From Negaprion brevirostris (Eukaryota), in NCBI GenBank assembly GCA_030324005.1, contig JARDVH010000106.1:53615774-53679773 (forward strand): 64,000 nucleotides of DNA. Direction: 5' to 3'. Both the position numbers and the translations under genes were made by a program. Within the stretch, counting starts at the first letter, position 1; each line of letters starts with the position of its first letter. The notes under the pieces were generated by a model, which was not told the DNA's origin, ran no database searches, and worked only from the letters and a program-made list of their open reading frames with translations. Positions 9,801 through 46,707 of this stretch are shown here, in pieces.

Positions 9801-9920
9801 TTAACTGGCTGTATTCTCAGCTATTCCAATGACTCCCCAGGCTAAACCTGTTGCAGCATTCCCTGTTATAAGGCTCTCTTCATTTTCACCCTTTCCTAGA
9901 TCATCTTCTTCTGCCTGAAT
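9801..9920 (-). CDS. SOD1-like paralog b, exon 5 coding part: [39 protein letters not shown]
   Basis: AAG acceptor. His120 is Gln, Arg143 is Gly, Cys146 is Trp. TAA at 9803-9801. The five exons sum to 516 nt (171 aa plus stop) with no frameshift. Confidence 0.95.
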
Positions 9921-10464
9921 CTTTAAAATGTAAAACAAAAATCAGTCAGCATCTATGTTAAAAAGATTTAAATAGTCCTCTTGGTTATGCAAGCAGAATC
10001 AGATATGGACATTACATAAGCATTTTATCAACTATCAAAATGCGTCAATAGTGAAGTCCAAAGACAAGTTCTATTTCTTTTTCAAGTGACAAACTGGTTT
10101 TAAAAAAAAACAATTTCATCTCAAACTTGAGGGGTACATCTCAAATTTCTCATTATTTTCTTACCAAATATAAGAGGTATATGCCCACAGTTGTCACACC
10201 AGCTTTCACATTTAACATGAAAGCTGATCATGTTAGCTTTCATAATATGAAATTTCATAATTTCATGAAAATTATATGAATTTTATTCATGTATATCAAA
10301 GGTCCAATTTTCAACAGCCAAAAGTGAAAGCATCACAAATTGTTTTTTTTGAAAAAAAACTCTTGTTTTAGGCACTGTTAAAGCAACCATGTTCTTTATT
10401 TTTCACAAAACATCAGTCTCTCATTCAGATATGAAGCAAAGAATGTTGATTCAGCTACCATATT

Positions 10465-10702
10465 AGAACATAAGAAATAGGAGCAGGAGTAGGCCATCTA
10501 GCCCTTCGAGCCTGCCCCGCCATTCAATAAGATCANNNNNNNNNNNNNNNNNNNNNNNNNNNNNNNNNNNNNNNNNNNNNNNNNNNNNNNNNNNNNNNNN
10601 NNNNNNNNNNNNNNNNNNNNNNNNNNNNNNNNNNNAGCCTAGTTTATTCAGCCTCTCCTCATAGCTCAACTCCCTCAACTCTAGTATCAGCCTAGTAAAC
10701 CT
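10465..10702 (-). mobile_element. CR1/HER1 LINE 3' end (gap inside)
   Basis: MRELSYEERLNKLG and a tail nearly identical to those at 6135 and 44817. Confidence 0.85.
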
Positions 10703-11644
10703 AATATTAGTATATAATAGTATTATTATAGAGATAGACCCCAGATTGAGGTCAAACGTGCAATGAAACTGCTTGCTTGTGGAGGGTATTTTCCGGACAA
10801 ACCATAAACAAACTGAAAATTACATTCAATATTGAACAATTTTTATCTCAGCATTACAATAGCATTGTGAGCAGTAACGCAATAATAAACAAGTTTTTCT
10901 TTTTAACAAACTGAGTTAAGCTGGTGAATCAGATGTCAGCTCCATAAAAATACTTATTAATTATATAAATAACTGTGAATGATCATTTACCTTGACTACA
11001 ATCTTTTTAGATCTTTGCTTATTTTCTCATGTGTCAACAATGTTCAAAATAAAACTCAGGTTTTCTTTAAAACTTCAATTTACCCAGGTTTTTTGGGGTT
11101 CTATTTTCCCACTGATTAATTTGCCAAAAAGTAAAACCTAAAACCAACAGATTTTAATGAATAGTATTTGACAACAGCCTATAACTCAGCAGATTGTTAA
11201 TCAGGTTTATTTGGTATCACGAGCTATATCATACGAGTCCAATACCAGCATCTCGACATCAGATTGTTCATATTAGACAGTATAAAGGTGGCCATGATAA
11301 AAAAAATTCTATGTTGCACACACTATTTGTTTCCTTTTGTCTCAGTACATGCAAGGTAACAAACTATGTTCACTTAGAGAGTTCTGCCCTTTCAATAAAC
11401 AACAGATTTGGATATTAAGGGCATAGCTGACAGTAAATGCCAACTGCTCAAATCCCAGGAGGGAAACTTGAAACAACTGTTCCTACATTTATGTTTTTGC
11501 ATTTATATAGTATGAAGAAAGGTTTGAAGATCCAGAAATTATATCTCCAATTACTTGTAATGATTTTACAGTAAAGTAAATGCAATAAGAAATAGGAAAA
11601 CAATAAAATAAAACTACACTTAAAGATGACAATGGCTTTACATA

Positions 11645-43336: not shown

Positions 43337-43727
43337 TNNNNNNNNNNNNNNNNNNNNNNNNNNNNNNNNNNNNNNNNNNNNNNNNNNNNNNNNNNNNNNN
43401 NNNNNNNNNNNNNNNNNNNNNNNNNNNNNNNNNNNNNCCCACACACCCCGACATGCTCTCTTTCACCTTCTTCTGTTGGGAAAAAGATACAAAAGTCTGA
43501 AGTCATGTACCCACCAAATCAAGAACAGCTTCTTCCCTCCTGCCATCAGATTTTTGAATGGACCTACTTTGCATCAAATTGATCTTTCTCTACCCCCTGG
43601 CTACGACTATAATACTACACTCTGCACTCTCGTTTCTGTCTCTATGAACAGTATGCTTTGTCTGTATGGTGCACAAAAAACAATACTTCCCACTGCATGC
43701 TAATACATAATAAATCAAATCAAAAAT

Positions 43728-45880
43728 TGTAGGAGTGTCCATCAAAACCATGAGACTACACAGAGACTACAAAGTCACAATCAACCAAGTAGTGGATGAT
43801 AGGCTGTATCATTTACTTAACCCCACCACCCACCCAACCCCCCAAGATTTGTATGTAAAGTTAGTGGGATCCACAGTATTCATAAAATTGGATTTGTTTC
43901 ACTTTTACACTCAGTTGTATTAATATCTCATCATAACCCCACACAAAGGGCAAGTGCATGTTGAAGTATACCCCTGTACTGTGAAGCTTTCTCCAAAAGT
44001 TTTCCATGTTACAATGGATAGGATTTTACAGGGAGTGTTCATTGTTCAGTTGGTCAATCAGGATGATGTATTGATAAAAAGATGGAGAATGGATGTAGTT
44101 TTAAAGAGACTCATTGATCACAATCCAAATTAAGAAAGGAGAATGTGAGCTTTTCACGCAAAGTAATTTACTTTAGCCTAAAAATCAATGAAAAGCAGCT
44201 ACAGCCAATAAAAGATAGAAGCTATAGTCAGTGCTCCATAACCAAAAGATATGAGCTTAAGCTTTTTTCTAGGCATGGTTCAACACTACTAAGTTTGTGT
44301 TGAAGAAAAGTCTATGTTGACAGAGTTTAGACAGTTAAACAACTGTTCCAAGTTGTCAAATTGAGTTGTGCAGACAGGACTGCATCAGTTGGAGTCACAG
44401 GCTGATGGTACCTGGTTCTTTGAGAGATAGGATTCTGGCAGGTTTCCATATGAAAACCATACCAAAAGGACTTGTAAATGGTGTGGCTTAACCATGATCA
44501 TAAATGGCGAGCAAATGTACTATCTTGCAAAACTGCAGAAATAAGTCACCAGGAATTCCTCCCCATGGAGTCATCCATTTCAAAGAGCTAGTAGATTTTT
44601 GCAAAAAAGACAATTACGATTGCTTGGTGCTGACTGACAACCACTTGAAGTGGATTGAAGTAAATTACATGGATCAAAATCAAATGTTGAACAGAGATAT
44701 CTGGCCCATTTTACCTGTTGTGGATTACCTGAAGAATCTCAGATAAAGGCTGTTAATTTAATTCTACTCCATTCCTACATTTCAAAAGAAAATGCTATAA
44801 TATACCCTTGCTTACTAGAACATAAGAACATAAGAACTAGGAGCAGGAGTAGGCCATCTAGCCCCTCGAGCCTGCCCCGCCATTCAATAAGATNNNNNNN
44901 NNNNNNNNNNNNNNNNNNNNNNNNNNNNNNNNNNNNNNNNNNNNNNNNNNNNNNNNNNNNNNNNNNNNNNNNNNNNNNNNNNNNNNNNNNNNNGACGGAT
45001 TCTAACATTTTACCTACAACAGACGTTAAACTAACCGGCCTATAATTCCCTGCCTTTTGCCTGCCACCCTGCTTAAACAACGGCGTAACATTAGCCGTTT
45101 TCCAATCTTCCGGCACTTCCCTGGAATCCAGCGACGTTTGGAAACTATCCAAAATGAAATGGATGTAGCAGAAAAATCTTCAAGGTAGTTAAACAAAGAA
45201 ACAAGTGCTGTACAGGCATTCAATTTCAGATGTATTAGCAGCTGGTTGATTTTCTTCAGAAATATAGAACATCACCATAGGATACACACCCACTGAGCTT
45301 TCGCTAAAGGGAAGATTATGGGAACATTGTGCAAATCGAACACAAACAGTTTGATCAAAATGCTAGTATAAAAGAAAATGCAGCATTTTTCTGTTCTGAG
45401 TAACCCACACAAGTGGTAAAAGTAAAAGTTTGAAACTAAACTTGGTTGAAATTGATGACTAAATCAAATTCCTACTTTGATCCATCCCTTGCTGGGATTA
45501 TATGATCCCAGTATGAGCCATTTTGTCCAATGCTTATACCAGTGTGTGGACTAGTTTAGACTGGCTGTGCGAAGAGAAAGAAACAGGATCTTTTGACAGT
45601 ATTGAACTGAAGCCAACAAATCCAGAACCTGACTAACAAAATCAGTCAGGTGAAACTTTCCATTTGTAGTTTAACAAAAAAAAAAGGCTCAATCATGCCA
45701 AGTGACATTCACAGATTTATTTTTCACTGTTGAAGCTATATGGTTAGAGAAACAGGAAATACAATAAGGGGGAAGCCCTGAAATGTATTCATATATTGTG
45801 AGCATATCCAGTGCGTAATAGCATCATTAAACACGTGAATTGGTCACGTTGGTGTCTTTCTTTGCAACAACCTTTCACTC
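43728..45880 (+). mobile_element. Degraded Gypsy pol remnant with a nested CR1 (44817-45150, minus)
   Basis: RT remnant RLHRDYKVTINQV...DLYVKLVGSTVFIKLDL, integrase remnant LVLTDNHLKWIEV, and a purine tract aataagggggaag at about 45762 before a possible 3' LTR. Confidence 0.75.
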
Positions 45881-46638
45881 AATGTAGTTGAAAACACCTC
45901 TGTATCCTCAGTTCTTAAAGCACCACGTTTAGTAGACTTCTTTTGACCTAAACCAGATAATACATTAAGCTACTTTCAGGGCCGGTATTTAGTTACTCAC
46001 TATTTTAATTTTTGGCACCTTGCTCATGAACTGACCATGGAAAATTAGGACGAACGAGACTTGTCCGTGAGTAAAACAGAACATAGTGTAAATACTCAGC
46101 AGGTTAAGCAGCATCTGTGGAAAAGGAAACAGCTTTCCCTCTCCACACACACTGCTTGGCCTGTGAATGTTTCAAGATTTTGTCTTGACCTCATGTTTCC
46201 AGAATCCACCGTATATTTATAGCTATATTTAGCTTTTGCTCATTTTAAGTCTGCTTGAAATGCACGTGTGAAACTAACTTCATCACTGCCATGCGGCAAT
46301 CACTCAGTGCTTGTGGCAATGAAAATCATCGTGGGAAAATTTGACCAAAACGTCCAATAATAATTCGGTTTCCATAAAACAGGGACAAAAATGTGCTCAG
46401 GTCAGGGAAAATATTCCACCACAATTGACGAATCAGAAAATAAATCCACTGCTATGCAGTGTGTCAGGATGAAGACGTCGGTTAGGTTTGAGACAGAACT
46501 GACCTCCCTCTCATTAAGACGGGGAGCCAGGTTTGGCCTGGCTTCAACCCACCGCCTGCGATTCAAACATTAACCGACACATATGCCGCAAACACTCCGG
46601 CACACCCTTATACATTTATAATTCTACCCGCTACTCAC

Positions 46639-46707
46639 CTCCATCTTGAAGAAAACAACCCCGAAGACGTTGAAGTGTCCAGTCAACACGCAAATAGCAT
46701 TGGCCAT
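46639..46707 (-). CDS. SOD1-like paralog a, exon 1 (69 nt): MANAICVLTGHFNVFGVVFFKME
   Basis: ATG in good Kozak context (AACATGG). Aligns to MATKAVCVLKG...GIINFEQK. Consensus phase-0 donor GAG|GTGAGT in CpG-richer surroundings. Confidence 0.9.

Follow-up and report, generated by a model that had tools for sequence, protein, structure and literature searches.

A conserved tandem array of SOD1-derived paralogs in cartilaginous fishes: predicted zinc-bound pseudo-dismutases without Arg143 and the Cys57-Cys146 pair

Homologues of the superoxide dismutase SOD1 with altered catalytic residues have been described in viruses and animals. The myxoma M131 and Shope fibroma S131R proteins are inactive and sequester CCS, according to reviews (PMC12390650, PMC7605207); the homologue of a capripoxvirus, lumpy skin disease virus (LSDV), carries R142G, C56F and C145T (bovine numbering) with the dimer residues kept, and the myxoma homologue is likewise without the catalytic arginine (PMC7712962). 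Among animals, the dipteran Sodesque (Sodq) is a SOD paralog without catalytic residues and of unknown function (PMC1847502), and SOD4 is an extra Cu/Zn SOD family of anamniotes, present in elephant shark and with orthologues in zebrafish and frog (PMC10416458). In this work, a 64,000-nt stretch of contig JARDVH010000106.1 of the shark Negaprion brevirostris (the window, to which coordinates refer; residue numbers are those of human SOD1) was analysed. It contained canonical SOD1 and, beside it, a and b, which belong to a tandem set of four SOD1 paralogs, all intact; the other two, c and d, extend left of the window. Judged from their sequences, the paralogs are predicted to be zinc-bound pseudo-dismutases in two classes: a and d, with copper histidines and the GDx[TS] motif for CCS docking, and b and c, with neither.

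Motif scanning in six frames, combined with reconstruction of exons, located the three SOD1-like genes of the window (canonical SOD1, a and b) on the minus strand. Paralogs a and b had five exons each, GT-AG introns, phases as in SOD1, and open frames of 165 (a) and 171 (b) amino acids. The first-pass annotation had given 9801..46707 as the span of the feature; this did hold a and b, but the array was larger, with exon 1 of c at 7969-7880 and d farther left. Further SOD exons were found left of the window by a PF00080 search of the genome, and the flanking DNA there contained the two additional genes (the residue-120 position of c was unreadable in this genome copy). Further copies were not found in the remaining 50 kb of flanking DNA, part of which reads N. 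In canonical SOD1 the metal ligands, the two cysteines and Arg143 were all intact. The features were as follows:

46707-32594, minus strand: paralog a, whole gene (exon reconstruction)
46639..46707, minus strand: a exon 1, ATG, strands 1-2, Cys6, GT donor
38246..38339, minus strand: a exon 2, His46, His48, Phe50, GDLT at 51-54
36181..36250, minus strand: a exon 3, Cys57Trp, His63, His71
35217..35334, minus strand: a exon 4, His80, Asp83, Ile113-Gly-Arg115
32594..32740, minus strand: a exon 5, His120, Arg143Gly, Cys146Trp, VIGI, acidic C-terminal tail, stop
23012-9801, minus strand: paralog b, whole gene (exon reconstruction)
22899..23012, minus strand: b exon 1, ATG, Cys6, insertion of about 14 residues between strands 1 and 2
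22098..22191, minus strand: b exon 2, His46, His48Cys, Phe50-Gly51, Asp52Asn, Thr54Phe
18647..18716, minus strand: b exon 3, Cys57Tyr, His63, His71
16681..16798, minus strand: b exon 4, His80, Asp83, Ile113-Gly-Arg115
9801..9920, minus strand: b exon 5, His120Gln, Arg143Gly, Cys146Trp, VIGI, stop
7880..7969, minus strand: c exon 1 (c exons 2-5 and d left of the window, loci L001-L007)
57440-57347, 54835-54766, 49065-48948 and 48531-48421, minus strand: canonical SOD1 exons 2-5 (exon 1 outside the window, some 700 bases to its right)

The paralog products were single domains of 158-171 amino acids. Models of orthologues contained the Greek-key barrel of PF00080 (predicted local distance difference test, pLDDT, 77 for a and 65 for b); the model of a had a template modelling (TM) score of 0.83 to SOD1 structures, with the acidic C-terminal tail as a low-confidence helix. 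The insertion between strands 1 and 2 was also present in b of shark, ray and chimaera. The a protein was 97.6% identical to P0270, and the closest database proteins were shark proteins.

The residues that define the family were scored in 55 rows (a 11, b 15, c 11, d 18), leaving out truncated, chimeric or near-duplicate isoform models such as P0004, P0010, P0014, P0017, P0020, P0022, P0025 and P0028, together with P0046, P0056, P0083, P0277, P0280-P0286 and P0297. Arg143 and both cysteines were invariant in 91 canonical SOD1 sequences; in the paralogs, Gly143 replaced the arginine in 55/55 rows, Cys57 and Cys146 never occurred together (0/55), residue 57 was usually Trp, Tyr or Phe, and residue 146 was Trp in 54/55, the exception being chimaera b, with Cys. 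The zinc ligands His63, His71, His80 and Asp83 were complete in 54 of the 55 rows, including a and b of the window, as was Asp124 in all of them; Gly51, Gly114 and Gly150 were likewise universal, and Ile151 was present in 53/55. The four copper histidines (His46, His48, His63, His120) divided the family: 10/11 rows of a and 10/18 of d had them (20/29 for this branch), as against 0/15 of b and 0/11 of c (0/26), the site being complete in window a and broken in window b by His48Cys and His120Gln. The d proteins with a full copper site came from 8 rays, Heptranchias and the chimaera; those of 8 sharks had Asn120 in place of His120, and in that shark group a supplies the full site. No a orthologue from rays was found among the matches, which is not proof of its absence. 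GDx[TS] followed the same division (a 11/11, d 18/18, b and c 0/26), with Asn52 in every b (15/15) and c (11/11). Other conserved residues were specific to single paralogs: Cys152-Gln153 in a (11/11), Asp152 in d (18/18) and Asn-Leu-Phe/Leu at 52-54 in b (15/15). Because Arg143 and the basic residue Lys/Arg136 were both gone and net charge was more negative than in SOD1 (-14 and -13 vs. -6), dismutase activity is predicted to be low; the paralogs would be weak or inactive as enzymes, and some may hold copper and occupy CCS.

Orthologues of the array genes were found in sharks, rays and a chimaera, with identities of 61-87%. Searching with a profile built from the four last exons gave 43 proteins, 28 of them chondrichthyan “SOD [Cu-Zn]-like” models, and further members were gathered with a full-length profile and cluster look-ups. 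Among 132 proteins matching the strand-8 motif, Gly143 was present in 37, all from cartilaginous fishes, and the other 95 had Arg143 and Cys146; in a whole-library profile search, the Gly143/Trp146 pair appeared, among the best 150 of 11642 matches, only in four chondrichthyan rows. Two unnamed non-shark SOD-like proteins, P0043 (with Arg143) and P0312 (with Ala there), had Trp at the Cys146 position, which suggests convergence. The phylogenetic tree contained a single paralog clade (support 99/95), divided into a+d (96/85) and b+c (99/95) and including three Callorhinchus members; since chimaera sequences fall inside the paralog clade, the array is placed before the chimaera-elasmobranch split. 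This split is dated to about 400 million years ago. The approximately unbiased (AU) test did not reject a clade of the paralogs plus chondrichthyan SOD1 (p 0.325); the array may have arisen on the chondrichthyan stem, or earlier, with loss in bony vertebrates. Identity to Pristis was 81.9% for b, 77.8% for d and 84.9% for SOD1, and to Pristiophorus 76.4% for a and 83.6% for SOD1, so that paralog divergence appears close to that of SOD1.

Like the chordopoxvirus homologues (M131R, S131R and LSDV ORF131), the shark proteins have a SOD1 fold that has lost the arginine but preserves most of the zinc ligands and dimer residues; LSDV ORF131 shares with them the Arg-to-Gly change and the absence of both disulfide cysteines, with Phe at 57. 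Unlike the viral proteins, they are host-encoded, have five exons, lie in tandem with SOD1 and have been kept in four copies since before the chimaera split. Shark a has four copper histidines and LSDV two, and the myxoma homologue keeps the disulfide cysteines, whereas the paralogs are without the pair. The GDx[TS] contact motif is one defined for SOD1. CCS binding has been reported for the leporipoxvirus proteins; for the shark paralogs it is a prediction. CCS domain II is also an inactive SOD1-like domain with a zinc site, having itself three copper histidines and GDxT, but it keeps the disulfide that the paralogs lack; these have neither the copper-binding domain I (HMA) nor the CxC domain III of CCS, carry Gly150 instead of the CCS-defining Ala, and were 40-46% identical to CCS vs. 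56-61% to SOD1. They share with vertebrate SOD1 the five-exon layout, phases, adjacent locus and fold, and differ from it in lacking Arg143 and the cysteine pair. Sodesque differs in having a signal peptide, in evolving fast and in being restricted to Diptera (PMC1847502). SOD4 is taken to be a different family, set apart by its description and not by its sequence, because zebrafish and frog orthologues have been reported, but among the matches of the family search none from a bony vertebrate carried the Gly143 signature. In which residues are lost and which kept, the shark proteins resemble the viral homologues, but by these comparisons they belong neither to the viral group nor to CCS or active SOD1.

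CCS binds SOD1 only in the disulfide-reduced state. In the SOD1-CCS complex, residues 57 and 146 have Arg143 wedged between them; when the disulfide forms, it levers the pair apart and so drives release (Sala 2019, PMC6383938). The genome encodes CCS at a place other than the array (a single pattern match, for the last exon only, which carried the motifs Ala-Arg and CxC and shared 96% identity with shark CCS); an HMA search of the genome gave long multi-domain matches only, and no CCS. In the CCS of Narcine (P0240), Gly occupied the Arg143-equivalent position, unlike in three other CCS rows.

The best explanation, held tentatively and somewhat more likely wrong than right, is that of a conserved four-gene, SOD1-derived array of zinc-bound pseudo-dismutases in which a, rather than b, would be the likelier CCS-docked copper holder. 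Unable to form the Cys57-Cys146 disulfide, the paralogs would be permanently in the CCS-binding state; Trp146 and the aromatic residue at 57 would fill the space of Arg143 in CCS-bound SOD1, Gly143 giving room, and the loop would be held CCS-receptive. Paralog a would then dock on CCS and keep hold of copper, the disulfide step that normally brings release being absent, b would serve as a dimer partner binding zinc alone, and the outcome would be a copper sink rivalling SOD1 for CCS in cells expressing a. With GDLT and a complete copper site retained, a suits the part of such a slow-leaving client better, and the decoy idea points to a and d more than to b. The first-pass annotation had used b as its main decoy example, a choice weakened by the loss of the side chains that grip CCS (Asp52Asn in 15/15 orthologues, Thr54Phe or Leu in 15/15). 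What keeps the decoy hypothesis alive is the disulfide-free state of the paralogs, the GDLT and four copper histidines of a, the genomic CCS gene, the poxvirus Arg-to-Gly change and the model of a b orthologue with CCS. A bolder version is doubtful: that these are host-encoded, permanently immature SOD1 mimics maintained for about 400 million years, with Trp replacing the disulfide and Arg143 switch, a/d trapping CCS and copper and b/c partnering them, a design reached independently by poxviruses.

Several observations weigh against the copper-sink explanation, beginning with the dimer interface. As the first-pass annotation had listed, b retained Cys6 (codon at 22994), Phe50-Gly51 (22116, 22113), Ile113-Gly114-Arg115 (16698-16692) and Val148-Ile-Gly-Ile151 (9833-9824), and a retained IGR (35234-35228) and VIGI (32653-32644), together with Cys6, Phe50, Gly51, Asp52 and Thr54, for which it had not been credited. 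The argument from these residues to a decoy did not hold, however. They are mostly backbone hydrogen-bond partners common to any SOD1-type dimer, the SOD1 homodimer being held by bonds from the backbones of Gly51, Gly114 and Ile151, and the side-chain contacts specific to CCS run from SOD1 Asp52 and Thr54 to CCS Arg104 (Sala 2019, PMC6383938, S2 and S4 Tables). Four distant non-vertebrate SODs likewise kept Gly51, Gly114-Arg115 and Val148-Ile-Gly150. When 21 interface sites, taken from the complex model described below, were compared with 119 other sites for identity to the SOD1 of the same genome, a scored 14/21 vs. 64/119 (p 0.34) and b 13/21 vs. 74/119 (p 1.0). Among sites invariant in SOD1, b kept 6/10 at the interface vs. 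49/57 elsewhere (p 0.07), with Asp52 and Thr54 lost; a second site list with orthogroup majorities gave p 0.03, uncorrected, for this comparison. Conservation of interface columns within orthogroups was above random only for a (52/2000, from four sequences and uncorrected; b 878, c 1819, d 283). Enrichment of the interface was rejected, as neither of the two site lists showed excess retention relative to SOD1. As its retention does not exceed that of the remaining fold, the interface fits homodimers as well as decoys, and indicates a SOD1-type dimer and not any particular partner.

The division of roles between a and b is weakened by the report that CCS R104A still forms a complex with SOD1 (Sala 2019, PMC6383938), and by structure prediction. 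The complex prediction proposed in the first-pass annotation was run for one pair, the b orthologue P0274 (87% identical to b of the window) with residues 80-255 of the shark CCS P0147, chosen as an adversarial test, the least favourable case for CCS binding (three runs, 3 controls). It scored 0.89 vs. 0.58 for the best control, with at least 69% of contacts shared between runs, a partner pLDDT of at least 86, and an interface made of the canonical one plus the b insertion. In benchmarks, 51/78 solved complexes and 2/108 mismatched pairs passed the score mark (39/65 and 2/126 for eukaryotes), as did 10/12 close cousins of a true partner, so that the model cannot tell which family member binds. 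Because solved SOD1-CCS complexes exist, the pass of P0274 is probably one of likeness and not of binding; it leaves b as a possible CCS binder, in line with the R104A result. In addition, the co-occurrence of copper ligands and Asp52 corresponds to one split on the tree and not to independent events, and is suggestive only; the aromatic residues at 57 and 146 might just as well imitate the closed form that has the disulfide; a decoy would not need four paralogs, maintained for so long and differing in their conserved surfaces (the b insertion, the acidic tail of a, Asp152-Glu153 in d); and the decoy role of the LSDV homologue was itself inferred in the paper describing it (PMC7712962).

A role apart from SOD1 and CCS, with the paralogs acting as homodimers or as heterodimers of a/d with b/c in a new structural, zinc-binding or tissue-specific function, is a serious if rather improbable alternative. 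It agrees with an interface retained at the level of the fold background and with interface and surface residues conserved separately in each paralog; it does not account for a/d proteins of sharks, rays and chimaera still having the CCS motif and a copper site with all four histidines. A palindrome that we take to be NRF1-like lay upstream of all four paralogs, which fits their co-expression with each other:

46743..46753, minus strand: palindrome of a, about 45 bases upstream of the ATG
23057..23067, minus strand: palindrome of b, about 54 bases upstream of the ATG
8005..8015, plus strand: palindrome of c, about 46 bases upstream of the ATG

These sites lay 45-62 bases upstream of the ATG, and a similar site of d (L003) 122 bases upstream, in CpG-rich, TATA-less promoters. 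Of the 5 matches to the palindrome in the window, 4 were at the a, b and c promoters (0.2 expected), for a pattern chosen post hoc; the SOD1 promoter was unreadable. Metal-response elements were at chance level (39 vs. 32.5 expected).

It is unlikely, though less so than for the explanations that follow, that a (and, in rays and chimaera, d as well) is a normal client of CCS and works as a true copper enzyme, either dismutating slowly or catalysing redox reactions through a widened channel lined by two Trp; b and c would be zinc-only partners. Arg143 mutants and disulfide-free SOD1 retain partial activity, and a keeps the four copper histidines, the zinc site, His43, Gly61 and Asp124. Arg143 limits the size of the incoming anion, so that Gly would open the site (review, PMC8247289). 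Such an enzyme would nevertheless have lost Arg143, the basic residue 136 and the disulfide together, would be strongly acidic in the case of a, and has no known substrate.

Heterodimers with SOD1 that tune its stability, location or activity are very unlikely. The conserved Gly51, Gly114, Gly150 and Ile151 make the four hydrogen bonds of the SOD1 interface, and residue 150 is Gly and not the Ala of CCS; the same residues, however, serve homodimers, and the mature SOD1 homodimer has low-nanomolar affinity vs. about 51 uM for disulfide-free SOD1 (Sala 2019, PMC6383938). That the paralogs are decaying, functionless duplicates, as loss of catalytic residues might suggest, is already largely refuted by intact frames and splice sites, by orthologues at 61-87% identity across sharks, rays and chimaera, by a spliced exon 4-5 join of a in at least 2 of 4 runs, and by the different appearance of the true SOD1 processed pseudogenes of this genome.

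The contigs that showed this join, which came from runs of relatives guessed to be RNA and were compared with exons 2-5 of a, joined exon 5 (end 32740) exactly to exon 4 (start 35217), with no differences in exon 4. In the catshark sperm proteome, the one SOD found was scyTo_0006156 and not the a-orthologue locus scyTo_0011685, and its supplement contained no match. The first-pass annotation had seen no signal peptide in any exon 1. This agreed with the main first exons, which encode SOD strands 1-2 (best 11-residue hydropathy 1.75 and 1.58, from hydropathy and not a dedicated signal predictor), but not with a signal-like candidate exon upstream of b (hydropathy 2.62), with which the NCBI model P0011 starts:

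23169..23249, minus strand: putative alternative exon 1 of b (in frame, GT donor)

As this exon would replace strands 1-2, it is probably spurious or non-productive. Models P0046, P0056 and P0025 were chimeric isoforms joining exons of neighbouring paralogs (b-c, a-b), P0046 being nearly a two-domain b-c fusion; they represent either read-through splicing or an annotation artefact.

The array was not described in the literature searched, including passages of PMC10416458, PMC10604766 and PMC11083954 (subscription journals lay largely outside the search), and its genes are known as automatic NCBI models, uncharacterised as a family. Vertebrates usually have one SOD1 gene, which varies very little. 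In databases the array genes carry only the label “superoxide dismutase [Cu-Zn]-like”, and this may confound counts of shark antioxidant genes as well as SOD1 primers and proteomic calls. In the literature examined, the SOD pseudoenzymes that bind CCS are viral; with the shark array it becomes testable whether animals use decoys of their own to regulate CCS or SOD1. Absence of the disulfide destabilises human SOD1; a conserved vertebrate family that lacks it, together with Arg143, provides naturally occurring and evidently tolerated counterparts of that state, in which it can be tested how the SOD1 fold stays stable.

Other features were found in and around the array. Between a and b, 24521-25163 was a 643-base imperfect inverted repeat (75% self-identity), probably a transposon remnant. 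An Arg/Asp-rich open reading frame (L010:8895-9437, plus strand) converged on the array and resembled the last exon of SCAF4, the usual neighbour of SOD1; an Atlas search with it gave no usable match. Elsewhere in the genome, two intronless, degraded SOD1 copies (L017:4880-5059 and L018:4959-5310) were consistent with processed pseudogenes, L019 held an intronless SOD3-like gene with a signal-like start, separate from the array, and L020 a long open reading frame of SOD repeats.

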